Shown here piece after piece: positions 936-64,000 of a DNA stretch of 64,000 nt. Position 1 is the first letter of the stretch, and each line of letters starts with the position of its first letter. A program made the position numbers and the translations under genes. The stretch comes from an uncultured Dehalococcoidaceae bacterium. Lineage in GTDB: Bacteria > Chloroflexota > Dehalococcoidia > Dehalococcoidales > RBG-16-60-22. The notes beneath the pieces are model-generated. The model was not told the DNA's origin and made no database searches. It saw nothing but the letters and a program-made list of their open reading frames with translations. Location of the stretch: assembly GCA_964422155.1 (NCBI GenBank), contig CAYQZZ010000004.1:1749-65748 (forward strand), in the 5' to 3' direction.

Positions 936-3389
936 CTAGTCATCTTTGGACTCTTCGAAAGTGGTAATCGCCACCAGCCGGTCGGTTTCATCGAGGGCCA
1001 TTACCCTGACGCCTTGCGTGCTCCGGCCCTGGGTAGTGATGCCCTTCCTGGGGTCTTCTTCCTTTACCGGCGTGCGGGTCATCATGCCTTCGGCGGATAT
1101 CAGCATGACCTGCTGTTGCAGCGTCACTACCTTGAAGGCCGTTATATCGCCGGTCTTTTCAACTATTTTAAACGTCCTTACCCCGCTGCCGGCGCGGTGC
1201 TGCTTTGGATATTGGGCCACCGGAGTAACCTTGCCATAGCCATGTTCGGTAACCACCAGCAGGTAGCCATCGGCAACGGCCCTGTCCATCCCGATAATAC
1301 CATCGCCCTGAGATATGCGCATGGCACGCACGCCACCGCTCGTCCTGGAGGCGGCCCTGAGACCGGCGACATCGAAACGTATCGATTGCCCTTTACGGGT
1401 TACGAGTATGACGTCATCCTTATCCTTGGCCAGGCAGACGGATACCAGCTGGTCACTTTGTGCCAGGTCCATGGCGATAAGCCCGCTGCTCCGCACGGCG
1501 GTAAATCTGTCCACCGCCGTCTTCTTTATCTCCCCCATCTTGGTCGCCATCACCATATAGGTACCCGGCATAAGACCGGTGGTCGCCACCATGGCCGTGA
1601 CTCTTTCTCCCTCGGTGATAGATAGCAGATTGATTATCGCCAGGCCCTTTGATGTCCGGGTGCTGCCGGCGGGTATTTCATGGCATTTCAGGTAAAAAAC
1701 CTTGCCCCGGTCGGTAAAGAAGAACAGGTCGTCGTGCGTATCGGCCACCGTCAAAATCATGACGGCATCCTCTTCCCGGGTCACCTGCCCGATGATGCCC
1801 TTGCCGCCCCGGTGCTGCAAGGCATAATGGCGCGAGGGTATCCTTTTGATGAAGCCGCGGCTGCTGAGGGTCACCACCACTCTTTCGTGGGGAATGAGGT
1901 CTTCCTCGGTAAACTCCAGCGCCCCCTGCTCGACTATTTCGGTGCGGCGTTTGTCCCCGTATTTGGACTTAAGCTCCTTCACCTCTTCCGTTATCAGGGC
2001 GAGAATTCTCCTGGGGTTGGCCAGCAGGTCTTCCAGGTAGGCGATTGTTTTCACGACCTCGGTATATTCGTCCTGTATCTTCTGCCTTTCCAGGCTGGCC
2101 AGGCGCCGTAACTGCATATCGAGGATTGCCTGCGCCTGAAGCTGTGACAGGCCGAAACGCGTCATTAGGTTCTTGCGGGCAGCTTCGGCTGTCTCGGATT
2201 CCCGGATAGTCTTGATTATCGCATCGATATTATCCAGCGCGATTCTCAGCCCTTCCAGTATGTGAGCCCGCGCCTTAGCCTGCTTTAGTTCGTATTTGGA
2301 GCGCCGGGTAATTACCTCGCGGCGGAAATCTACATAACTCTGTAGAGCCTCCCTGAGGCTGATTACCTTCGGCTGTCCGTCAACCAGAGCCAGCATGTTG
2401 ACGAAGAAAGACGACTGCATGGCGGTATATTTATACAGGTTATTGAGGACCTGCTGGGGCTGGGACTCCCTCTTAAGCTCGATGAGGATACGCATTCCCT
2501 GGCGGTCGGACTCGTCGCGCAGGTCGCTGATGCCCTCGATTTTCTTGTTTTTAACCAGCTCGGCGATATTCTCAACCAGAGCCGCCTTATTTGTCTGGTA
2601 AGGCAGCTCACTGACCACTATATTGCGGCGCCCGGCGGCGCTCACGCTGGTAATATGCGCCTTGGCACGGACCACCAGTTTGCCGTGCCCGGTGGCATAA
2701 GCATTCCTGATACCCTCCCGCCCCTGGATTATTCCTGCCGTGGGAAAATCGGGTCCCTTCACGAATTTGCCGAGTTCTTCGATAGTGGCCTGGGGATTTT
2801 CGATAAGGTAGGAAATAGCATCGCAGACCTCGCCCAGATTATGCGGGGGGATATTTGTGGCCATGCCCACGGCGATGCCGGAGCTTCCGTTCAACAGCAG
2901 GTTGGGTAATCTGGCGGGCAGCACCCTGGGTTCCTGAAGGCTGTCATCGAAGTTCGGCATGAAGTCCACGGTCTCTTTTTCGATGTCAACCAGCATCTCC
3001 TCGGCTATCTTCGCCAGGCGTGCCTCGGTATACCGCATGGCGGCGGGTGGGTCATTATCGACACTGCCGAAATTACCCTGGCCATCAACCAGGGGATAAC
3101 GCATGGAGAAGTCCTGCGCCATACGGACCATAGCGTCATATATCGAGGCATCGCCATGGGGATGATATTTACCCATTACCTCACCGACAATACGGGCGCT
3201 CTTGCGGTACGGTGTGTTGGGCCGTACCCCCATATCATTCATGGCATAGAGAATGCGCCGGTGCACCGGTTTTAATCCATCCCGTACATCCGGCAGGGCA
3301 CGGGCGACGATGACACTCATCGCATAGTCGAGGTAAGAACCTCTCATCTGGTCTTCGATATTAACCAGTCTCACGTTGCCCGATACCAT
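936..3389 (-). CDS. gyrA: DNA gyrase subunit A
   Basis: 817 aa with [19 protein letters not shown] and YHPHGD motifs and a C-terminal beta-pinwheel repeat region. Ends in TAG. Confidence 0.97.
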
Positions 3390-50047: not shown

Positions 50048-51808
50048 CTATTGCCTGATAGGAATCCTGGAGAACTCAAATTTTCCTTGATTCTTTTTCA
50101 GGGCTAGGAAGGCGAGCCATTTTGCGTCGTCCTGCTCCGGGAAATCCGCCCGGATGAACCCGAAAGGCGCTCTGCGGCTCTCCTGCCTTTCCAGCGAGGC
50201 ATTCAGTACCATCTCGGCGTTATCGATAATCGACTGCACTTCAAAGCACCGCATGAGTTCATGGGGATTTTCGGCTTTAAACAGAGCGTTTTTCTTGATA
50301 TCGTTTAGGCGTTCGATGCCGCGTCTCAGCGTGTTTCCCGCCCTGACGTCGCCAGCATAGTAATCTAGCGCGTTCTGTACGGCCAGCTCTACCTCGCGCC
50401 AGTGCTGTCCTTCCTTACTTGTTAATATGCCGGAGCACAGCTTTTTGAGGGACTCTATTTGTTCGGCATCCACGGGCAGGAAATCTTTCTGCTGCCTGGC
50501 TTCCTTGGCCGCCTTCTCACCGGCGCGCCAGCCCATGACGAAAGCCCCCGGCGCCCCCGCCCAGGGTACCCCGCCGACGTCATCCCCGGCGCCGAACAAC
50601 CCTTTGACCTCGGTTTCCAGGTCATTGTTCACCACCACTCCTGAGGCAGCCGTGCCGGCCATCTCGCGGCTGTTCGGGAGCCATTCCAGCTTGTCCTTTC
50701 GGAAGTCGAATCCTTCCTGCTTTTTTAAGTAGTCCAGGAACAGAGACCCTTTGCCCTCGTTGCCGATTGACCATTCTATGTATTTTATCTCTTCCTCGGT
50801 GCCGCCGGTGAGGTCGAGATAAAAGGGCCCCTCTCCCTGTTTATGCAGTTGTTCGTAAGACGGACGCGGGTTCCGGTTCCCCGAGAGCATCTTCTGTCGG
50901 CTTATCCTGGCGTCCACTTTCTCCTTGCCCAGGTTCTCCCAGTCATAGAAACGGGTTCTCGGGACGATTACTTCGCCTTGGGGGCCGGTAACAGCCGCGG
51001 CCGGCTGTACCGTGTTCCGGGGAGAGCCCAGGTTTAGCTCGTAGTTGCCGATGGAATAGTATCCCGAGGAAAGGAACTCCATGTTGATTACCGGAATGCC
51101 GGCGCGGAAAGCCATGGCACGGCCGTCCCCGGTTTCATTCACGGGTATGCGGTGGTTGCCCCAGATGCCGGTTACGTTGGGGGTCAGTCGGTTGGCCCGC
51201 CCCGTGCACAGGACGACCGTTTTCGCCCGGAAAGAATATAGATGGCCGTTATTTGTGCCTATGCCGAGCGCCCCCGATATCTGGCCGTCGGTGATTAACA
51301 GGGCTACCATCATGACCCGATTTATAATATTGACGCCCCTTTTTTTAGCCTCTAACGTAAGCTTTACCTTTAAATCGCGGCCGTCAAAGTTAAATGAGCT
51401 CGGCAGGCTGTGGAACTGGTACACAATCCGGAATTTGCCGGGTATTTTGCTATCTTCGTACCTGATTTTAATGCCGAACTTCTCCAGGTCCAGCATCCTG
51501 CTATAGTTTTCGCTGGCCACCAGGCGGAGCAGCTCTTTATTGATAAAGCCCCGCGCTATTAGCTGGGCGTGGTCTTCTATCAGGTCGTCGATAGTCCACC
51601 CCATCTTTTCATGGACAAGTGGTATATAAGCCCATGAGTGGTCGACTCCCGTCCCGGCGCAGCCGCTGCTCAGTGTATTGGCCTTTTCCGCTATCGTGGC
51701 TTTTACCCCGTATTCGCTGGCTTTTATCCCGGCCATGCAGCCGGCCAGTCCACCGCCGATGACCAGTACGTCCGTCTCAACTGGTATCACTTCGGTATCT
51801 GGTTTCAT
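50048..51808 (-). CDS. FAD-dependent oxidoreductase, AprA / fumarate-reductase-flavoprotein-like
   Basis: DVLVIGGGLAGCMAG dinucleotide-binding motif; 586 aa. 4-nt overlap with the upstream ferredoxin gene. Confidence 0.78.
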   Translation of the reverse strand: MKPDTEVIPVETDVLVIGGGLAGCMAGIKASEYGVKATIAEKANTLSSGCAGTGVDHSWAYIPLVHEKMGWTIDDLIEDHAQLIARGFINKELLRLVASENYSRMLDLEKFGIKIRYEDSKIPGKFRIVYQFHSLPSSFNFDGRDLKVKLTLEAKKRGVNIINRVMMVALLITDGQISGALGIGTNNGHLYSFRAKTVVLCTGRANRLTPNVTGIWGNHRIPVNETGDGRAMAFRAGIPVINMEFLSSGYYSIGNYELNLGSPRNTVQPAAAVTGPQGEVIVPRTRFYDWENLGKEKVDARISRQKMLSGNRNPRPSYEQLHKQGEGPFYLDLTGGTEEEIKYIEWSIGNEGKGSLFLDYLKKQEGFDFRKDKLEWLPNSREMAGTAASGVVVNNDLETEVKGLFGAGDDVGGVPWAGAPGAFVMGWRAGEKAAKEARQQKDFLPVDAEQIESLKKLCSGILTSKEGQHWREVELAVQNALDYYAGDVRAGNTLRRGIERLNDIKKNALFKAENPHELMRCFEVQSIIDNAEMVLNASLERQESRRAPFGFIRADFPEQDDAKWLAFLALKKNQGKFEFSRIPIRQ

Positions 51809-52065
51809 GGCTTCTCTCCTCTCAGGATGGATACCCTCATCGGGAGGGGCGGGACAATCTTGATAGCCCCCTTTTCCCGCTGCGGGCAGCGCATCCAGCA
51901 GGCTCCGTCATAGGCGCATTCGTCCGGGTATTTTATTAAGGGGGGTTTACCCTTCTCGGGATTAGCCTCAAGGATTTCCATGAGGCAGACATCCACGCAG
52001 GTATTGCATCCCGTGCAAACATCCTCGTTAAAAACAATTGGGTTAAACATCGCTGACCTCCGCAA
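51805..52065 (-). CDS. Small 2x[4Fe-4S] ferredoxin (AprB-N-terminal-like)
   Basis: CTGCNTCVDVC and C...C...CWMRCP cysteine groups. The start may be the internal MFNPIV. Confidence 0.72.
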   Translation of the reverse strand: MRRSAMFNPIVFNEDVCTGCNTCVDVCLMEILEANPEKGKPPLIKYPDECAYDGACWMRCPQREKGAIKIVPPLPMRVSILRGEKP

Positions 52066-53843: not shown

Positions 53844-54653
53844 TTATCCCCTTTCACCGAATATCCCTGTGATATTGTTGGAAATCCGTCTCGAACTGGC
53901 TTTTAGCTCGGCAATAACCTCTTTCACCTTGGGTTGGAGACGGCTCTCCGGGCCTACGACGCTCAGGCCGACCGGCAGGATGTAATTATGAATAGGTGCC
54001 GCGATACAAAAAGTTCCCTGGACCCGTTCTCCGTAGCTGATGGCGTATCCCTTTTGCCTGATTTCCTTCAACTGCGCCATCAGCAGTTGCTTATCGGTAA
54101 CGGTACGTTCGGTTTCCGGCGTGATGTTTATGTTATCCATTAATATTTTCAGTCTTTTTTCATCGAGTTGCATGAGTAATACTTTTACGGAGGCTCCGGC
54201 ATACAGACCGGCGTAGAGAGGTCCTATCTTTTTACTCTCCTGGGTGACTTTGAGGGTATGCTTGCTCGGTATTTCATGCAGCGGAAGATATTGAATACCT
54301 ATCATGATATCCAGGGCAACCGTTTCCTCTGAGAAAGATGCCAGGTGTTTCATCTCGTCGATGGCGCACGTTATCAGGCGCTTATGAGTGGTTACGGGGT
54401 TTGATGTCAGTTGCGTGATAAGGGGACCGAGGTAATAGCGGCGGTTGATAGTATCCTGGACCACAAGGAGGGGTTCTTCCAGTAGTTTGAGTACTCTGTG
54501 GACGGTGGATTTGCTGAAATTGCATTGCCTGGCAATATCGCTTATCTTGTGGACATCGTTGCTCAGGCAGATGAGAATTTCAGTAGCATGAGCTATGGAA
54601 CCGGTAGCCTTCTTTGCCTTTTCCGGGATTACTTTCGGAATACTCGCCTCCAT
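53844..54653 (-). CDS. IclR-family transcriptional regulator
   Basis: N-terminal wHTH (ISDIARQCNFSKSTVHRVLKLL) and a C-terminal IclR effector domain. Confidence 0.87.
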   Translation of the reverse strand: MEASIPKVIPEKAKKATGSIAHATEILICLSNDVHKISDIARQCNFSKSTVHRVLKLLEEPLLVVQDTINRRYYLGPLITQLTSNPVTTHKRLITCAIDEMKHLASFSEETVALDIMIGIQYLPLHEIPSKHTLKVTQESKKIGPLYAGLYAGASVKVLLMQLDEKRLKILMDNINITPETERTVTDKQLLMAQLKEIRQKGYAISYGERVQGTFCIAAPIHNYILPVGLSVVGPESRLQPKVKEVIAELKASSRRISNNITGIFGERG

Positions 54654-54827: not shown

Positions 54828-55604
54828 ATGTTACTTAAAGACAGGGTCGCCATTATTACCGGCGGAGCCCGCGGCATGGGCAGGGCCATCGCCCTCCGCT
54901 TTGCTAAGGAAGGCTGCTCCTCGGTTATCATTGACCTTCTGGATAAAGAAGGCGAAAAAACGGTTAGCGATATTAAAAAGGCCGGGAAGGATGCTATTTA
55001 CGTCCGTTGCGACGTCACCAGCAGCGCCAAAGTGAGGGAAATGGTGGCCAAGTCTATAGTTAAGTTCAAGAAAGTGGATATCATGGTGAACTGCGCCGGT
55101 ATCGGCAGGCCGCCTGTGCTGATTAATGATATCTCCGAAGAGGAATATGACAAGGTCGTGGGGGTCAACATGAAGGGTATCTTCCTGTGCCTCCAGGCCA
55201 TCGCCCCGCACATGAAAGCCAATAAATACGGCAAGATTATCAACATCTCTTCTCTGGCGGGTATTTCTCCCGGCGCGTTTGCCATTCACTATGCCGCCGC
55301 CAAAGCCGGAGCTTTGCACCTCTCGAACTGTTTTGCCCTGGAAATGGCCAGGTATAATGTCACCGTCAACGTCATTCTCCCGGGGATGATTCGCACGGAT
55401 ATGACCAGAGATTTTGCCCCGCCGATGATTAAAGACCTGGACGCTTTCATGGGCGAGATGGCTAAAGGCATACCTCTGGGGAGGGAAGGTACCGTGGATG
55501 ACATCGCCTCGGCGGCGCTGTTCCTGGCATCCGATGAATCCTCGTATATCACGGGCGATAGTATACGTGTCGGGGGCGGTATGCCCAACCGGGCGGCACC
55601 GTAA
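54828..55604 (+). CDS. SDR-family oxidoreductase
   Basis: TGGARGMG, NCAG, YAAAK. GGAGG upstream. Confidence 0.87.
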   Translation: MLLKDRVAIITGGARGMGRAIALRFAKEGCSSVIIDLLDKEGEKTVSDIKKAGKDAIYVRCDVTSSAKVREMVAKSIVKFKKVDIMVNCAGIGRPPVLINDISEEEYDKVVGVNMKGIFLCLQAIAPHMKANKYGKIINISSLAGISPGAFAIHYAAAKAGALHLSNCFALEMARYNVTVNVILPGMIRTDMTRDFAPPMIKDLDAFMGEMAKGIPLGREGTVDDIASAALFLASDESSYITGDSIRVGGGMPNRAAP

Positions 55605-56583: not shown

Positions 56584-56611
56584 TTGACAGGTATGACATA
56601 AATGATATAAT
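56584..56611 (+). promoter_or_regulatory. Sigma70-like promoter upstream of the cupin gene
   Basis: TTGACA, 16-nt spacer, TATAAT. A leader of about 120 nt follows. Confidence 0.5.
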
Positions 56612-57549: not shown

Positions 57550-57578
57550 TTGACTTTTCATTTAGGCATTGATATACT
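57550..57578 (+). promoter_or_regulatory. Near-consensus sigma70 promoter of the corrinoid/methyltransferase cluster
   Basis: TTGACT, 17-nt spacer, TATACT, 90 nt upstream of the ATG at 57668. Confidence 0.55.
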
Positions 57579-57667
57579 CGCCATGAGCAGGTGCACCTCA
57601 AGCTTGGACGAGGGAAATCCACACCATTCTCAAATAGACCATCGATAAATTTAAGGAGGATAAAGGT

Positions 57668-58303
57668 ATGCCCAAGGATTTTGTCAATCTGTTAGCTGAC
57701 CTGAAAGAGGATGAGGTTCTTAAACTAACCAGGCAAAGACTTGAGTCCAAAGAAGACCCGATGAAAATCCTGGAGGACAGCCGAAAGGGCATGGAAATCG
57801 TAGGCAAGCGTTTTGCCGACGGCGAGTATTTCCTGCCGGAGCTTGTCTTTTCCGGTGAGCTTATCAAGCAAATTACCGAGATAGTAAAACCCCATCTTAC
57901 CAAGTCATCGGCTAAAATCAAGCGTCTGGGCAAGGTTGTCATCGGCACGGTAGCCGGTGATATTCATGATATCGGCCTGAACATCGTTGATTTCATGCTG
58001 GACGTCAATGGTTTTGAGGTTACCAACCTCGGTGTCGACGTACCTGCGGAAAAGTTCGTCAAGGCGATGAAAGATACCAAGGCACCCGTTCTCGGTTTAA
58101 GCGGATTCCTTACCCCCGCCTTCGACGCCATGAAAGAGACCGTCGAGGCTCTGGACAAGGCTGGACTGAGGAAAAATATCAAAATCATGATTGGCGGCGG
58201 CCAGATGGACGATGAGGTCAGGAAGTACGCCAAGGCCGATGCCTTTGGTAAAGACGCTATGGCGGCGGTGGCTCTATCCAAGAAGTGGATTGGTGTTAGC
58301 TAA
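57668..58303 (+). CDS. Corrinoid (cobalamin-binding) protein, MtaC/MtbC-like
   Basis: N-terminal helical cap domain and a Rossmann B12 domain with the GDIHDIG (DxHxxG) lower-ligand motif. Confidence 0.88.
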   Translation: MPKDFVNLLADLKEDEVLKLTRQRLESKEDPMKILEDSRKGMEIVGKRFADGEYFLPELVFSGELIKQITEIVKPHLTKSSAKIKRLGKVVIGTVAGDIHDIGLNIVDFMLDVNGFEVTNLGVDVPAEKFVKAMKDTKAPVLGLSGFLTPAFDAMKETVEALDKAGLRKNIKIMIGGGQMDDEVRKYAKADAFGKDAMAAVALSKKWIGVS

Positions 58304-58304
58304 T

Positions 58305-59639
58305 ATGGCAAAAACCTGGGGGGAGTTATCTCCGGATGAAAAGCGGGAAGAACGCTTCAAGCGCTGGCTTTCTCCCTCGGGTATTGCTTTCTCCAGCCCG
58401 CAGACCGGGAAAGCTTATAAGGAGAGGGTAACCAGGTTATCCAGAGCCTTTCAGTTGAAAAAGCCTGATAGGGTACCCTGTATCCTGCCGGCGGGTAATT
58501 ACCCGGCCTACTATGCCGGGACAGACCTCCATACCGTCATGTATGACTACGATGAACTGAAACGTGCCTGGCTAAAATTCCTTCACGACTTTGATAAGGA
58601 TATGGACACCTATACCCCTCCCGGTATGGTCCCCCCGGCTAGAGCCCTGGAGGCTGTGGACTATAAGCTGTATAAATGGCCCGGCCACGGGATAGCTGGT
58701 AATACGACGTCATATCAGTGCGTTGAAGCCGAATGGATGAAAGCCGACGAGTACGATGCCCTCATCAAAGACCCCTCCGACTTCTGGCTGCGTACCTATA
58801 TGCCGCGGGTCTTCGGCGCTTTTAAAGCATTCCAGCAGCTCCCGCCCCTGACCAGCTTCGAAGAAATCGCCATCCAATCTTTCGTACCCTTCGGACTTCC
58901 GGATGTTCAGGCCGGATTCCAGGCTTTGCTGGAGGCCGGTAGGGAAAGCCTGCGATGGATAGCCGTAGTCGGTGCCGTCGCCGGTGAGGCGATGGCGGCG
59001 GGATTCCCCGGTATCCTGGGCGGCATGGCCAAGGCCCCGTTCGACACCCTCGGGGATACCCTGCGGGGTACTCAGGGGATAATGATGGACATGTTCCAGA
59101 GGCCGGATAAACTTCACGAGGCCATGGAAAGAATCGCCCCACTGACCATCAAATCGGCCATATCCTCGGCCGACGGCGGCGCCGCGCCTTTGGTATTCAT
59201 GCCCCTGCATAAGGGTGCTGATAGCTTCATGTCCGTCAAACAGTACGAGACCTTCTACTGGCCCACCTTTAAAAAGGTCGTCATGGCCCTGGTCAATGAA
59301 GGTATCGTGCCGATACTGTTCGCCGAGGGCAGCTATAACAAGCGCCTCGATATTATCGGCGATTTCCCGAAAGGCTCGGTAGCCTGGTATTTCGACCAGA
59401 CCGATATCTTCAGGGCTAAAGAGGTGCTCGGGGATACCTGCTGCATTATCGGCAACATACCTACCTCATTGCTGATGACGGGTACGCCGCTGCAGGTCAA
59501 GGAACACTGCCGCAAGCTCATCGAGGGCTGCGGCAAAGGCGGGGGTTATGTACTGGCCGGCGGCGCTCAGATTGATGAGGGTAATCCGGAAAATCTACGC
59601 GCCATGATGGCTGCCGCGAAAGAATACGGCGTATATTAA
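58305..59639 (+). CDS. UroD/MtaA-superfamily methyltransferase paralog 1
   Basis: 444 aa. Start MAKTWGELSPDEKREERFKRWLSP lies 1 nt after the corrinoid gene stop. The track start at 58191 overlaps that gene. Shares PFDxxGDxLRG and MPLHKG motifs with paralogs 2-4. Confidence 0.8.
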   Translation: MAKTWGELSPDEKREERFKRWLSPSGIAFSSPQTGKAYKERVTRLSRAFQLKKPDRVPCILPAGNYPAYYAGTDLHTVMYDYDELKRAWLKFLHDFDKDMDTYTPPGMVPPARALEAVDYKLYKWPGHGIAGNTTSYQCVEAEWMKADEYDALIKDPSDFWLRTYMPRVFGAFKAFQQLPPLTSFEEIAIQSFVPFGLPDVQAGFQALLEAGRESLRWIAVVGAVAGEAMAAGFPGILGGMAKAPFDTLGDTLRGTQGIMMDMFQRPDKLHEAMERIAPLTIKSAISSADGGAAPLVFMPLHKGADSFMSVKQYETFYWPTFKKVVMALVNEGIVPILFAEGSYNKRLDIIGDFPKGSVAWYFDQTDIFRAKEVLGDTCCIIGNIPTSLLMTGTPLQVKEHCRKLIEGCGKGGGYVLAGGAQIDEGNPENLRAMMAAAKEYGVY

Positions 59640-59778
59640 GAAGAAATAACCAGATCTCAAGGTACAATAACCAAACTTCTTGGTCATTAATTATTGAATA
59701 TTGGAATTTGTTTGGTGCTTGTATCTTGGTTATTGGTTATTCCTTACACAGCTAGCAATAAAACGTGAGGCAACGGTA
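59640..59778 (+). promoter_or_regulatory. Conserved structured intergenic element, copy IG1
   Basis: Block A aaataaccagatctcaaggtacaataaccaa. Block B ttggtcattaattattgaatattggaatttgtttggtgcttgtatcttggttattggttatt. 59690..59742 is identical to 61195..61247 (53 of 53 nt). Confidence 0.6.
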
Positions 59779-61122
59779 ATGGAAGGGGTAAATAACTGGG
59801 AAAAACTGACCTGGCAAGAGAAGCGTGAAGAACGGTTCAAGCGGTGGCTTTCTCCCTCAGGGGTGAAATTCAGCAGCCCGGAAGCCGCGAAAAAATATAA
59901 AGCCCGCGCCACCCGGATGATGAAAGCCATCAAGATGGAGATGCCGGACCGCGTTCCGGTTCATTTAGCCACCGGTTCTATCGTCGCCTACAACGCCGGG
60001 TTAACACTTCAAGACGTCCTCTATGACTATGACAAGATAAAGCCCGCCTGGATAAAATTTCTTAATGACTACGACCAGGACTCGGCTGACAGCCCCGGAT
60101 TTTTCTCAGGCAGGGTCTATGAAATCCTTGACTATAAAGTGAACAAGTGGCCGGGGCACGGCCTGCCGTCCAATCAGACGATGCAGCAGTTCGTGGAAAA
60201 AGAATACATGCAGGCGGATGAGTATGACCTTTACATGAAAAACCAGTTCGACTACGGTGCGCGGTACCTGCTGCCGCGCATGTGGGGTATCTTTGAGCCA
60301 CTGGCAAATGCCCCGCCGTTTACCTCTTACCAGGGGCTGCCACAGCAGCTCATGATGATGTGCCAGGACCCGGCTTTCCAGAGACTCTTCAAGGCTATCT
60401 GGAAGGCCAGCCGGGAAAACGTTAAGTGGCAAAAAGTCGGCGACGATTGCCGCCAGATTTCTCTGGAAATGGGTTTTCCTCCCTTGATGGGTGGCATGGC
60501 GCTGGCGCCTTTTGATACCATTGCCGATATGCTAAGGGGTACCTACGGTTCTGTTATGGACATGTACCGGCAGCCGGAAAAACTGCTCGAAGCTCTGGAA
60601 GTAATTACGGAGCGGAGTTTAGAATCGGCCGTGAATATGGTCAATATGTCTCGCAGCCCGATAGTATTTGTCCCGATGCACAAGGGCGATGACAGTTTTA
60701 TGTCCGTCAAGCAGTTCGAAAAGTTCTACTGGCCCACGTTCCGTAAGCTCCTCCTGGGCTGTATTAACGAGGGCTGCGTGCCGATGATGGTTATCGATGG
60801 CAGCTATAATAGTGCCCGCCTGGAAATTATCAAGGAACTGCCCCGGACATCGGTCGTGTGGACCATGGAGAAGACGGATATGTTCAAGGCCAAGGAAATC
60901 CTGGGCAATTCCGCCTGTATTGCCGGCAATGTCACCGCGGCGCAGCTTTATACGCAGACTCCGCAGGTCATTAAAGAGTACTGCCGCAGGCTCATTGAAG
61001 TCTGCGGTAAAGGCGGCGGTTATATCCTGTCGCTTGGCTCCGGCATTGATAAGTGCAACCCGGCAAACCTGCATGCCATTATTGACGCTGCCAGGGAATA
61101 CGGCATCTATAAGAAGAAATAA
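59779..61122 (+). CDS. UroD/MtaA-superfamily methyltransferase paralog 2
   Basis: 447 aa, start MEGVNNWEKLTWQEKREERFKRWLSP with GTGAGG upstream. Confidence 0.8.
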   Translation: MEGVNNWEKLTWQEKREERFKRWLSPSGVKFSSPEAAKKYKARATRMMKAIKMEMPDRVPVHLATGSIVAYNAGLTLQDVLYDYDKIKPAWIKFLNDYDQDSADSPGFFSGRVYEILDYKVNKWPGHGLPSNQTMQQFVEKEYMQADEYDLYMKNQFDYGARYLLPRMWGIFEPLANAPPFTSYQGLPQQLMMMCQDPAFQRLFKAIWKASRENVKWQKVGDDCRQISLEMGFPPLMGGMALAPFDTIADMLRGTYGSVMDMYRQPEKLLEALEVITERSLESAVNMVNMSRSPIVFVPMHKGDDSFMSVKQFEKFYWPTFRKLLLGCINEGCVPMMVIDGSYNSARLEIIKELPRTSVVWTMEKTDMFKAKEILGNSACIAGNVTAAQLYTQTPQVIKEYCRRLIEVCGKGGGYILSLGSGIDKCNPANLHAIIDAAREYGIYKKK

Positions 61123-61284
61123 CCAAATCTCAAGGTACAATAACCAGACAATAACCAATAACCAAATTTAAATAATCAAGCTTTTTGGTCATTGATTATT
61201 GAATATTGGAATTTGTTTGGTGCTTGTATCTTGGTTATTGGTTATTCTTTACCAGAGCTCGCAATGAAACGTGAGGCAACGGCA
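61123..61284 (+). promoter_or_regulatory. Conserved structured intergenic element, copy IG2
   Basis: Same A and B blocks, plus extra aataacca boxes (acaataaccagacaataaccaataaccaaa). Confidence 0.6.
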
Positions 61285-62625
61285 ATGGAACGTGTAAATA
61301 ATTGGGAAAAACTGTCCCGGGGGGAGAGGCGGGAGGAGCGGTTCCGGCGGTGGCTTTCACCCGATGTTAAATTCAACAGTCCACAGGCTAGGAAACTCTA
61401 TAAAGAGCGAGTCACGAGATTTATCAAGGCCATCAAGCTGGAAGAGCCTGACCGCGTCCCGGTTATGCTGCCGGTGGAATATTACCCGGCCTACTATGCC
61501 GGCGGTAATCTCAAGAAGGTCATGTATGATTACGATGAGTTGAAGCGCGCCTGGCTGAAATTTATAGAAGAATTCGATATGGATTCGTTCAACAGTCCCA
61601 GCCTTGTCTTTCCCGGTAAAGTGCTGGACATGATTGACTATAAAATACAGAAATGGCCCGGGCATGGCCTCGCTGATGATGCCCCGTCACACCAGTTTAT
61701 CGAAGGCGAGTATATGCCGCCCGGGGAATATGATGCCCTTATCAAAGACCCGGCTGATTATCTTCTCAGGTACTTTTTACCCCGCTCCAATGGCGCTTTA
61801 AGGAGCTTCAGTAAGCTTAGCCCGATAACACCCTTTGTCGGTATACCGGTCTTCTACATAGCAAATTTCGGCGACCCTGATATACGTGCGGCGTACCTGA
61901 AGCTTCTGGAGGCCGGCCAGGAATGTATAAAGTGGATGGCCGCCGTCGGTGAAGTCAGCCAGGCGTCGCTGGCGGCCGGATTCCCCACCGTGTGGGGCGG
62001 CATGTCCGGGGCGCCCTTTGATATGATTGGCGATTGGCTGAGAGGCACCCAGGGCATAATGATGGACATGTTCCAGCGGCCGGATAAGCTCCACGAGGCC
62101 ATGGAAAGGCTGGTGCCCATAGCTATTGATGAAACGGTCAGCTCGGCAAACGCCTCCGGCTGCCCGATTATCTTCATGCCGCTGCATAAGGGGACCGGCG
62201 GTTTCATGTCCAACAGGCAGTTCGAGACTTTCTACTGGCCAACTCTTAAGAAAGTTATGATGGGTCTGATTAACGAGGGCCTCGTGCCCATGCCTTTTGC
62301 GGAAGGCAACTATGAGCCCCGCTTGGAGATTATCAGAGAGATGCCTATGGGCTCGGTGATATGGTTTTTCGAACAGATGGATATGGCCCATGCCAAGAGG
62401 GTTCTCGGTGGTAATGCCTGTATCGCCGGTAATTTACCTGCCTCGGTACTGTGCACGGGCACGCCACAGCAGGTCAAGGATTATTGCCGTAAGCTCATCG
62501 AGGTCTGCACGCCGGGCGGCGGTTATATACTGACGGCTGCCGTGCACATGGATAAAGGTAACCCGGACAACCTGCGCGCCATGATGGAAGCGGCTAAAGA
62601 GTATGGGGTGTATAAGGAGAAATAA
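61285..62625 (+). CDS. UroD/MtaA-superfamily methyltransferase paralog 3
   Basis: 446 aa, start MERVNNWEKLSRGERREERFRRWLSP, chosen by analogy with paralog 2. Confidence 0.8.
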   Translation: MERVNNWEKLSRGERREERFRRWLSPDVKFNSPQARKLYKERVTRFIKAIKLEEPDRVPVMLPVEYYPAYYAGGNLKKVMYDYDELKRAWLKFIEEFDMDSFNSPSLVFPGKVLDMIDYKIQKWPGHGLADDAPSHQFIEGEYMPPGEYDALIKDPADYLLRYFLPRSNGALRSFSKLSPITPFVGIPVFYIANFGDPDIRAAYLKLLEAGQECIKWMAAVGEVSQASLAAGFPTVWGGMSGAPFDMIGDWLRGTQGIMMDMFQRPDKLHEAMERLVPIAIDETVSSANASGCPIIFMPLHKGTGGFMSNRQFETFYWPTLKKVMMGLINEGLVPMPFAEGNYEPRLEIIREMPMGSVIWFFEQMDMAHAKRVLGGNACIAGNLPASVLCTGTPQQVKDYCRKLIEVCTPGGGYILTAAVHMDKGNPDNLRAMMEAAKEYGVYKEK

Positions 62626-62797
62626 TCAAATCTCAAGGTACAATAACCAAGATACAAGATACAATAACCAAACAATGAACAATAACTAAATTCTAATAAC
62701 CAAACGAGTTTGTAGCGTTTGGTCATTGGATATTGAAATTTGTTTGGAATTTGTATCTTGGTTATTGGTTATTTAGATTAAAAGGGGGTATTTGAAT
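62626..62797 (+). promoter_or_regulatory. Conserved structured intergenic element, copy IG3
   Basis: The 16-nt aataaccaagatacaa is perfectly complementary to ttgtatcttggttatt, and ccaaacaa to ttgtttgg. Five aataacYa boxes are present. Confidence 0.6.
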
Positions 62798-64000
62798 ATG
62801 GCTAAAACTAAGAAATGGGAAAAGCTGACCTGGCAGGAAAAACGCGAAGAGCGCTTTAAAAGATGGCTTTCACCGCCGGACGTGAAATTCGTCAGCAAGG
62901 AAGCTGAAAAGCTCTACAAGCAAAGGGTGACCAGGTTTATCAAGGCCATCAAGCTGGAAGAGCCCGACCGCGTGCCGGTGATGCTGCCGACCGGTAATTA
63001 CCCGGCTTACTGGGCAGGGGCGAACTTCCGGACGTTAATGTATGACTATAAAAAGGCGCACCAGATATGGATAAAATACATGGAAGCTTTCGGGGACATG
63101 GATATATTTAACGGGCCCGGTCTCGTCCCTTCGGGGAAGATAGCGGAAGTCGTTACTTCCAAGCTCCAGAAACTGCCCGGCCTGGGCTTGCCCGATGACG
63201 CCTCGATGAACCAGTTCGTCGAGGGCGAATACATGATGGCCGATGAGTACGACCTTCTGATGATGGACCCCACCGACTACAACCTGAGAGTCATGCTGCC
63301 CCGCACCACTCCCCTCTTTGAATCATTCAAGAAGCTGCCGCCCATCCGCTCCCTCATGGGCACATCGTGGGTTGCCGTACTCTCTGACCCGAAAATACGC
63401 AAGACGTTCCAGGCCCTCATGGACCTGTCCGATGAACACAAACGATGGCAGAGAGCTAACATGAGGATTAACAAATACATCAGGTCACAGGGATATCCTT
63501 CCTTATTCGGCGGCGGCCCCATGGCCGGGGCGCCCTTCGACCACTTTGCCGATGCCCTGCGGGGAACTCATGGCGTCGTCATGGACATGTACCGCCAGCC
63601 GAAGAAGCTGCATGAGGCCATGGAATTCTGGTTGAACATGATGATTGAAACATCTATCAAGAATTTCCCGATGACAAATAGCCCTATTTGCATGATGCCT
63701 CTGCACAAGGGTGATGATACCTTTATGTCCGATAAACAGTTCGAGGAATTCTACTGGCCTTATCTGCGGGGGGTCTTCATGGCCATGATTAACGAGGGTC
63801 TTGTGCCGATGCCGTTCGCCGAGGGCCGGTACAATAACCGCCTCAAGCAGATTGCGGATACGCCCAGGAGCGGCGTCGTCTGGTACTTCGACCAGACGGA
63901 TATGGCCCAGGCGAAAAAAATTATCGGCGATATCTGCTGTATTGCCGGCAACGTGCCCACCTCGGTGGTGATGACCGGCACCGTCAAGCAGGTGAAAGAG
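62798..64000 (+). CDS. UroD/MtaA-superfamily methyltransferase paralog 4 (3' end off the window)
   Basis: Absent from the track because there is no stop in the window. ATG at 62798 after AAAGGGGG. My translation MAKTKKWEKLTWQEKREERFKRWLSPPDVKF...PFDHFADALRGTHGVVMDMYRQP...MMPLHKGDDTFMS... stays open to 64000. Confidence 0.78.
   Translation, partial: MAKTKKWEKLTWQEKREERFKRWLSPPDVKFVSKEAEKLYKQRVTRFIKAIKLEEPDRVPVMLPTGNYPAYWAGANFRTLMYDYKKAHQIWIKYMEAFGDMDIFNGPGLVPSGKIAEVVTSKLQKLPGLGLPDDASMNQFVEGEYMMADEYDLLMMDPTDYNLRVMLPRTTPLFESFKKLPPIRSLMGTSWVAVLSDPKIRKTFQALMDLSDEHKRWQRANMRINKYIRSQGYPSLFGGGPMAGAPFDHFADALRGTHGVVMDMYRQPKKLHEAMEFWLNMMIETSIKNFPMTNSPICMMPLHKGDDTFMSDKQFEEFYWPYLRGVFMAMINEGLVPMPFAEGRYNNRLKQIADTPRSGVVWYFDQTDMAQAKKIIGDICCIAGNVPTSVVMTGTVKQVKE

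Follow-up and report, generated by a model that had tools for sequence, protein, structure and literature searches.

A cluster of genes at the end of the stretch of DNA analyzed here encodes a corrinoid protein (CP) followed by a tandem series of substrate:corrinoid methyltransferases (MT-I). The stretch, referred to as the window, is 64,000 nucleotides long and spans positions 1749–65748 of contig C4 (66.3 kb) in a metagenome-assembled Dehalococcoidales genome of 2.44 Mb, which is divided over 195 contigs and is 87% complete with an estimated contamination of 3.5%. Taken as a whole, the locus is best explained, with good confidence, as the promoter-proximal part of a single corrinoid-dependent methyl-transfer operon. 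The part of this reading that we hold most firmly, judging from sequence, is that the array would be a working corrinoid methyl-transfer system. That most of the methyl donors would be aryl methyl ethers derived from lignin or from humic matter is favored by a smaller measure, on balance rather than strongly.

In the proposed cycle, activated Co(I)-CP would dock on one of several MT-I dimers, each of which would bind its own methyl donor and move the methyl group onto the cobalt of CP. The resulting CH3-Co(III)-CP would pass its methyl group on to tetrahydrofolate (THF) through a pterin-binding methyltransferase (MT-II). Here, methyl-THF would be oxidized, or condensed to acetyl-CoA, by Wood–Ljungdahl enzymes encoded elsewhere in the genome. 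CP that becomes oxidized to Co(II) would be re-reduced by an ATP-dependent activase of the RACo type. By synteny with relatives, the operon would comprise six or seven MT-I genes followed by one MT-II gene, and one CP would be shared by all of these enzymes as well as by eleven others encoded at scattered sites.

The corrinoid protein is of the MtaC/MtvC type. It consists of a B12-binding_2 cap (55.8 bits) and a B12-binding Rossmann domain (78.6 bits), and the cobalt-ligand motif DxHxxG is present as DIHDIG at residues 98–103, in agreement with the MtaC-like B12 protein named in a first-pass annotation of this DNA. Its best NCBIfam match is to TIGR02370, 'methyltransferase cognate corrinoid protein', at 149 bits against a trusted cut-off of 215, which makes it a diverged member of that family. 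The sequence AAGGAGG is located 8 nucleotides 5' of its ATG, and the minimal spacing between the CP gene and the first MT-I gene suggests translational coupling. A fusion protein of the CmuA type was considered and rejected, as CP is a separate gene here. A candidate sigma-70-like promoter lies 90 nucleotides upstream of the CP start. The consensus-like promoter proposed earlier is therefore present as a sequence, but such sites are no more common in this region (12) than in shuffled sequences (8.8 +/- 2.9), so that the site by itself is weak evidence and is treated as a candidate only.

The MT-I paralogs of the window are co-oriented, 444–447 aa in length and 50–58% identical to each other (paralog 3 is 58%, 50% and 54% identical to the others). 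The sequence past the window end, which the first-pass annotation had marked for inspection, contains the remainder of paralog 4 and the start of a fifth MT-I copy at C4:66072, approximately 180 nucleotides after paralog 4, followed by the contig break. The tandem array here thus contains at least five MT-I genes, and the CP gene followed by at least four paralogs of about 445 aa described previously is borne out. Some matches carried in-match TAG flags, and pyrrolysine or broken genes were considered as an explanation. This was rejected, because the TAGs are terminal stops read through by the aligner and 17 of the 17 paralogs are open.

On sequence grounds, the window paralogs are placed in the MtvB/OdmB/MtoB/CdmB clade of MT-I enzymes within the UroD superfamily. 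Among PDB sequences, paralog 3 matches best, and by a very wide margin, the 429-aa CdmB (9rui) of Acetobacterium dehalogenans, which aligns over the whole length with E=6e-44. A profile built from 30 sequences matched CdmB with E=2e-65, far more strongly than UroD (3e-4) and MtaA (4ay7; 0.02). CdmB is the MT-I of a three-part system that also includes the corrinoid protein CdmC and the MT-II CdmA, and it has been grouped with the O-demethylase MT-I enzymes MtvB, OdmB, VdmB and MtoB (PMC13222342). Profile searches of the kind proposed in the first-pass annotation matched Pfam URO-D in the paralogs and both B12 domains in CP. The URO-D match covers only residues ~238–441, which is the C-terminal half.

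The earlier label 'MtaA-family' could not be maintained. The paralogs score far below the cut-offs of the NCBIfam models: 42 against 400 for MtaA, 39 against 600 for MtbA, 50 against 235 for mtaA_cmuA and 62 against 244 for PRK06252 (the MtaA/MtbA cut-offs being those of NF040654, NF041608 and TIGR01463). The HemE model (TIGR01464) gives 18–34 bits against a cut-off of 303, again in the C-terminal half only. It is very improbable that the paralogs are MT2 enzymes of the MtaA/MtbA type, which would carry methyl groups from the methyl-corrinoid to a thiol. This idea draws on the weak NCBIfam matches in the C-terminal half and on the Foldseek match to MtaA 4ay7 (template modeling score, TM, 0.71 by target length), and it is opposed by the scores and profile E values above, as well as by the separate pterin-binding MT-II that closes the operon in relatives. 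To our knowledge, coenzyme M is not made by bacteria of this lineage.

There is next to no likelihood that these are genuine uroporphyrinogen decarboxylases or UroD-fold enzymes of another kind that are not methyltransferases. Such an identity is suggested by the URO-D match, by UroD structures heading the Foldseek results and by most names of homologues in databases ('uroporphyrinogen-III decarboxylase' and 'uroporphyrinogen decarboxylase family protein'; others are called 'hypothetical protein'). Against this, HemE scores are far below the cut-off, the URO-D match is restricted to half of the protein, and the Foldseek PDB library, which ended in April 2026, predates the CdmB entries. In addition, the genes are coupled to CP and, in relatives, to MT-II, and 17 copies in this one genome would make no sense for an enzyme of the haem pathway. 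The true UroD and MtaA-type MT2 identities were both rejected outright.

Molecular modeling was used to examine the fold. The AlphaFold2 (AF2) model of paralog 3 has a mean predicted local distance difference test (pLDDT) of 93.7 and a predicted TM (pTM) of 0.92, and it is a UroD-type TIM barrel of the 430–450 aa size class with inserts in the N-terminal half. The top Foldseek matches, UroD and MtaA, reach a TM of 0.56 by query length and of 0.69–0.71 by target length, which corresponds to a UroD barrel with about a hundred extra residues; approximately a quarter of the model falls outside the UroD core. CdmB likewise is a UroD barrel, extended between its first strands, and contains no zinc (PMC13222342).

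The remaining components are encoded elsewhere. In profile searches of contig C4, neither an MT-II (pterin-binding or MtrH-type) nor an activase of the RACo/RamA kind was found, which extends to the whole contig the absence that had been reported for the window, and MtrH was not found anywhere in the genome searched. Two further arrays close with MT-II genes, one on C76 (128–5116; three MT-I genes, then a Pterin_bind MT-II) and one on C88 (71–3951; two MT-I genes, then an MT-II). Both MT-II proteins are Pterin_bind proteins of 284–287 aa. Contig C5 encodes a RACo-type activase of 653 aa (Fer2, RACo_linker, Raco_middle and RACo_C_ter), C18 carries the ACS/CODH/CFeSP/AcsE cluster of the Wood–Ljungdahl pathway, and the genome has two MetF genes, one of which adjoins an MT-I gene on C38. 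The methyl acceptor was previously described as open; the MT-II genes that end the homologous arrays, together with the activase and the Wood–Ljungdahl cluster, no longer leave it so.

Further support for a single operon came from a relative (L027), in which a 326-kb contig contains a single operon of CP, six MT-I genes and a Pterin_bind MT-II, with the gene order found here and CP directly upstream of the array. The first four MT-I proteins of the relative (R1–R4) are 80%, 80%, 83% and 79% identical to window paralogs 1–4, and its fifth is 81% identical to the truncated fifth copy of C4. Its sixth matches the C88 protein C88_b at 81% and its MT-II matches the C88 MT-II at 86%. This synteny implies that the window holds the first two-thirds of a conserved operon ending in MT-II, and C88 may be the continuation of C4. 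C76 was rejected as the continuation, as the 63 residues of the fifth copy are only 81% identical to C76_b. C76 carries a further member of each of the orthologue groups of paralogs 4, 5 and 6, 79–86% identical to the genes of the relative; it is a second, diverged operon or else stems from a co-binned strain.

Besides the truncated fifth copy, the genome contains 17 full-length MT-I paralogs and a divergent copy that is split. The latter, at C65:1347–2481, is a URO-D-like gene divided into overlapping open reading frames (ORFs) of 177 and 208 aa with ~25% identity to paralog 3; it may be a frameshifted pseudogene or a separate, short protein of the UroD family. Only two CPs of the MtaC type are present, on C4 and C24 (62% identity), and the remaining B12-binding matches look like mutase subunits or radical-SAM proteins by their size and neighbors. 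Eleven further MT-I genes are scattered singly, and only the copy on C24 has an adjacent CP. The ratio of full-length MT-I to MtaC-type CP to MT-II to activase is thus 17:2:2:1, which describes a hub arrangement.

The MT-I family is concentrated in one taxonomic family, where 14 of the 24 genus representatives have it in 1–18 copies (7–18 copies in 11 of them) and tandem runs reach seven or eight genes. Of 16 other families in the order, only 2 have it. A scan of relatives, with one genome per species, yielded 541, of which the best 80 are described here. These are mostly metagenome-assembled genomes (MAGs) of Dehalococcoidales/Dehalococcoidia with 50–79% identity; Acidobacteriota, Spirochaetota, Desulfatiglans, 'Deltaproteobacteria' and a Bathyarchaeia MAG follow at 48–52%. 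One of the best 80 belongs to a cultured organism, Neomoorella stamsii DSM 26217, with 48% identity over residues 8–443. Related MAGs were recovered from peat and soil as well as from the sediments of aquifers and sulfidic springs. A HMMER search of 1.84 billion cluster representatives returned 1043 at E<=1e-30, so the family is large and already sampled.

A tree of 133 sequences, including the mtv-like MT-I of Neomoorella, was built with FastTree and rooted on CdmB; its deep branches are provisional. Window paralogs 1–4 each fall in a clade of their own (starred in the tree), comprising 8–18 sequences from different MAGs, and a single clade of 65 rows, dominated by Chloroflexota, holds most operon paralogs. 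The scattered MT-I proteins of C24, C38, C42, C54 and C114 cluster with those of Acidobacteriota, Spirochaetota, 'Deltaproteobacteria', Bathyarchaeia and Neomoorella, and the Neomoorella protein nests among the paralogs of this genome. Orthologues are 79–86% identical versus 34–64% for paralogs. From these comparisons, the duplications are old and each copy has been retained, and since the paralog lineages have been kept separately each probably takes a different methyl donor.

Two loci from the relatives stand apart. In a Bathyarchaeia genome (L098; JAVZIQ010000002.1), an MT-I that is 51% identical to paralog 3 and has the full N-terminal motif described below has genes for a RACo activase, for a CP and for an MtrH-like MT-II as neighbors, which indicates that MT-I has moved between domains while the type of MT-II differs. 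This locus is the 'bacterial-type MT1' system, which is reported to be shared by bacteria and archaea through horizontal transfer (PMC10989822). In addition, a 5.8-kb 'Thermodesulfobacteriota' contig (L048; SPRUCE 180) has a 72%-identical MT-I nested among Dehalococcoidia sequences, pointing to recent transfer or mis-binning.

Near the N-terminus, the paralogs carry the motif W-x-x-L-(T/S)-x-x-E-K-R-E-E-R-F-K-R-W-L-S-P, which is present in 4/4 window paralogs and in 14 of the 17 full-length paralogs of the genome. It is missing from three (C2, C53 and C169; 409–437 aa) and from many short representatives of the wider family. At the core positions W7, E14, K15, R16, E17, R19, F20, W23 and L24, the consensus residue is found in 99–118 of 132 family members. 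The motif also occurs in Acidobacteriota, Spirochaetota, Thermodesulfobacteriota and Bathyarchaeia, with a degenerate form in Neomoorella, and is thus the mark of a subfamily spread over several phyla. The N-terminal extension noticed earlier is therefore present in all four window paralogs and is not peculiar to this locus. In the AF2 model of paralog 3 it forms a helix (residues 12–24, pLDDT ~96), and it lies upstream of the start of the CdmB alignment, where query residue 32 aligns to CdmB residue 12.

Conservation is unevenly distributed along the paralogs. Mean pairwise identity in the motif (0.50–0.57) is about that of the barrel core, whereas it is only 0.27–0.36 in the inserts at residues 181–240. 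Variation peaks at residues 101–120, 161–240 and 281–300, which are the inserts, and residues 241–260, 301–320 and 401–420 are conserved between paralogs. The N-terminal helix would accordingly serve a function common to all paralogs, for example docking of the shared CP or dimerization, and the variable inserts would shape the substrate site.

Residues E140, R167, H301, K302, G303, Y317 and R346 show little or no variation across 132 relatives, and the six polar ones among them, as well as the sequence PLHKG, are kept in the Neomoorella and Bathyarchaeia homologues. These residues bear on the possibility that some or all of the paralogs are CdmB-like dehalogenating methyltransferases, in which case methyl groups would be taken from chloromethane, bromomethane or iodomethane instead of from methoxy groups. 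Of the relatives, CdmB is the closest to have been both solved and assayed, and the host class is known for organohalide metabolism. Haloalkane use is also argued to have arisen several times in the superfamily (PMC13222342). However, CdmB is only 23–27% identical to the paralogs, whose closer relatives are found in mtvCBA-like clusters, and it differs at the conserved positions (E140K, R167K, H301W, K302Y, Y317H and R346L, with the position of G303 deleted). It is described as acting on non-polar haloalkanes by way of hydrophobic channels, without participating in catalysis, and its cavity as aromatic, hydrophobic and non-catalytic (PMC13222342). The replacement in CdmB of polar residues that are invariant here weighs against a CdmB-like role, and we regard haloalkane scavenging as improbable. 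The conserved polar residues would instead fit, without proving, donors that need polar binding or proton donation, such as aryl methyl ethers.

A reading with broader chemistry retains the same relay and supplies it with other donors: methylthiols or methylthio-propionate, methanol, aliphatic methoxy acids or O-methyl sugars, whose demethylated products would be processed by the neighboring short-chain dehydrogenase/reductase (SDR) and FAD/Fe-S oxidoreductases. Genes for SDR, FAD_binding_4 plus CCG (GlcD/GlcF-like), FAD_binding_2 plus ferredoxin, and DUF169 proteins recur near MT-I here and in relatives, and the 17–19 paralogs suggest a chemically broad range of donors. UroD-family thiol and halide methyltransferases also exist (PMC8630106). 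Conversely, the assayed members MtvB, OdmB, VdmB and MtoB all take methoxylated aromatics, and MtoB takes neither methanol nor trimethylamine (PMC8630106). The co-located gene families are, moreover, very common in this genome (for example 84 cupin matches), so that adjacency is weak, and the reading is considered rather unlikely.

Aryl methyl ethers, then, remain the favored donors, and several points weigh against that assignment and against the operon as proposed. The identity of the paralogs to CdmB is as low as stated above, and CdmB, the sole characterized relative compared by sequence, is a haloalkane enzyme that does not act on methoxylated aromatics (PMC13222342). The placement beside true O-demethylases depends on the tree of PMC13222342 and on the Neomoorella cluster. 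The neighboring genes (SDR, FAD/Fe-S oxidoreductases, cupins and DUF169) point to aromatics unclearly, and it is by synteny that the array's own MT-II would lie past the contig break. On the other side, Dehalococcoidia became enriched in incubations of sediment to which lignin was added (PMC10116835).

The type of system is known, as exemplified by MtvABC, OdmABCD, MtoABCD and CdmBCA, and large MT-I complements are known too. The locus resembles MtvABC, the vanillate/dicamba O-demethylase of Moorella thermoacetica, and the Neomoorella stamsii cluster (L114) in having the order CP, MT-I of ~440 aa and pterin-binding MT-II. In N. stamsii, CP, MT-I, a pterin-type MT-II and a second MT-I form the mtvCBA arrangement. 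The matching MT-I protein is 48% identical to paralog 3, keeps PLHKG, has the degenerate motif and is mtv-like by gene arrangement. MtvB needs no zinc (PMC13222342). Unlike these clusters, which have one or two MT-I genes, one CP is followed here by at least five, and by six in the relative. The match to the CdmB clade and the mtvCBA-like cluster of Neomoorella together support the earlier proposal of an array of substrate-specific MT-I enzymes of the O-demethylase type sharing one CP.

A second counterpart is MtoABCD of Methermicoccus shengliensis (PMC8630106), where tandem MtoB1/MtoB2 proteins of 47–48 kDa share one CP, the activase is MtoD, and genes for an MFS transporter and a regulator are near. 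The divergence of the MtoB paralogs was read as a hint of differing substrate preference (PMC8630106). Mto has two tandem MT-I genes as opposed to at least five here, and its MT-II is MtrH-like and methylates tetrahydromethanopterin (H4MPT), whereas the MT-II proteins of the present genome are of the Pterin_bind kind. CdmBCA of A. dehalogenans shares the set of CP, MT-I and MT-II, the whole-length match and the UroD barrel with inserts, and CdmB (9rui) is the only solved structure in the clade. It differs by its low identity, by lacking the N-terminal helix motif of ~20 aa and by the replaced polar residues.

Large MT-I families per genome also occur in acetogens and Desulfitobacterium, where they are read as breadth in methyl donors. 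D. hafniense DCB-2 has about 17 operons. Such genomes mostly repeat whole CP/MT-I/MT-II sets, in place of which the hub ratio is found here. A. dehalogenans has 26 methyltransferase systems (PMC13222342). What is distinct in the present case is the lineage, the long tandem array between a single CP and a single MT-II, and, for a genome this small, the ratio of at least 17 MT-I to 2:2:1. In the open-access literature, neither such arrays in Dehalococcoidia nor their scale in the lineage was found described. To speak of an undescribed module, as was done earlier, is nonetheless an overstatement, as good descriptions of this type of system exist (PMC8630106, PMC13222342).

In anoxic sediments, aquifers and peat, Dehalococcoidia rank with the most abundant uncultured bacteria, and their livelihood is largely obscure. 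The presence of 1–18 MT-I genes per ~2-Mb genome in 14 of the 24 genera sampled from the present family, together with the Wood–Ljungdahl pathway, points to methyl groups, probably lignin methoxyls, as a main source of carbon and energy. A bolder proposal, which we hold tentatively and with more doubt than belief, is that the Chloroflexota-dominated MT-I radiation reflects an undescribed lifestyle in one Dehalococcoidales family, in which a shared CP hub would channel a broad range of donors into the Wood–Ljungdahl pathway. If so, some donors would go beyond aryl methyl ethers to include methyl halides, aliphatic or sugar methoxy groups and humic-bound methoxyls, and these uncultured bacteria would be dedicated methyl scavengers or methoxydotrophic acetogens. 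The paralogs also provide concrete enzymes for expression and screening, and the hub of one carrier, one folate methyltransferase and many donor-specific enzymes may serve as a natural demethylase panel with a common carrier. Many of the thousands of homologues bear the name 'uroporphyrinogen decarboxylase' in databases, which misleads and keeps this metabolism out of sight when metagenomes are surveyed.

The coordinates of these genes and of other features of the window are given in Table 1. The presence of dnaA and gyrA, and the turn of the cumulative GC skew near 12 kb, indicate that the likely replication origin is ~46 kb from where the methyltransferase operon starts; the operon is on the leading strand. 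The setting had been called origin-proximal and Dehalococcoidia-like, and both descriptions are confirmed.

Table 1. Features of the window, in window positions
Feature	Position	Strand	Remarks
gyrA	936-3389	-	
dnaA	10411-11778	+	
FAD_binding_2/Succ_DH_flav_C flavoprotein	50048-52065	-	
IclR regulator	53844-54653	-	context
SDR	54828-55604	+	context
Promoter of cupin gene	56584-56611		12/12 consensus
Small metal-binding cupin, 151 aa	56739-57194	+	HxH...H
Candidate sigma-70-like promoter	57550-57578	+	TTGACT-17-TATACT, TG-extended; 10/12 consensus matches
Corrinoid protein, MtaC/MtvC type, 211 aa	57668-58303	+	Pfam B12-binding and B12-binding_2; NCBIfam TIGR02370
MT-I paralog 1, 444 aa	58305-59639	+	ATG 1 nt past CP TAA
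Imperfect hairpin, spacer of paralogs 1/2	59641-59745	+	fold -38.2 kcal/mol, z = -3.7; repeat families D5/D6/D8
MT-I paralog 2, 447 aa	59779-61122	+	
Imperfect hairpin, spacer of paralogs 2/3	61120-61244	+	fold -43.4 kcal/mol, z = -5.8
MT-I paralog 3, 446 aa	61285-62625	+	structure modeled
Imperfect hairpin, spacer of paralogs 3/4	62641-62767	+	fold -46.0 kcal/mol, z = -7.7; inverted repeat I3
MT-I paralog 4, 445 aa	62798-64000	+	extends 141 nt beyond the window

The spacers between the MT-I genes contain AT-rich, imperfect hairpins of 100–125 nucleotides, which are more stable than shuffled sequences (z of -3.7 to -7.7). The hairpin arms (TTGGTTATTGGTTATT / AATAACCAATAACCAA) are up to 98% identical across spacers, a conservation far above that of the genes; the copy in the 2/3 spacer is 98% identical over 55 nucleotides to that in the 1/2 spacer. 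These hairpins may be intercistronic elements of RNA processing, stability or attenuation.

Upstream of CP, the SDR and IclR genes recur beside homologous arrays, and SDR, FAD_binding_4 plus CCG, and DUF169 genes recur by the arrays here and in L027. A flavoprotein of the FAD_binding_2/Succ_DH_flav_C type (586–648 aa) is encoded near MT-I genes in the window, at C114:2517–4437 and at C53:3366–5625; contig C114 ends inside it. In the window and on C53, a small ferredoxin accompanies it, with Pfam confirmation of the ferredoxin in the window only. The 151-aa cupin has no Pfam match and is modeled as a mono-cupin fold (AF2, pLDDT 80.6), the best PDB folds being the non-haem-iron epimerase/lyase 7eqk and MarH. 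It was dropped as a component of the system, since 84 matches to the cupin family (E<=0.01) in the 2.44-Mb genome leave its adjacency little weight. This expansion of the cupin family is striking in its own right and includes many tandem or double-domain ORFs, for example at C63:3110–5503, C28:18488–21617 and C1:92464–99595.

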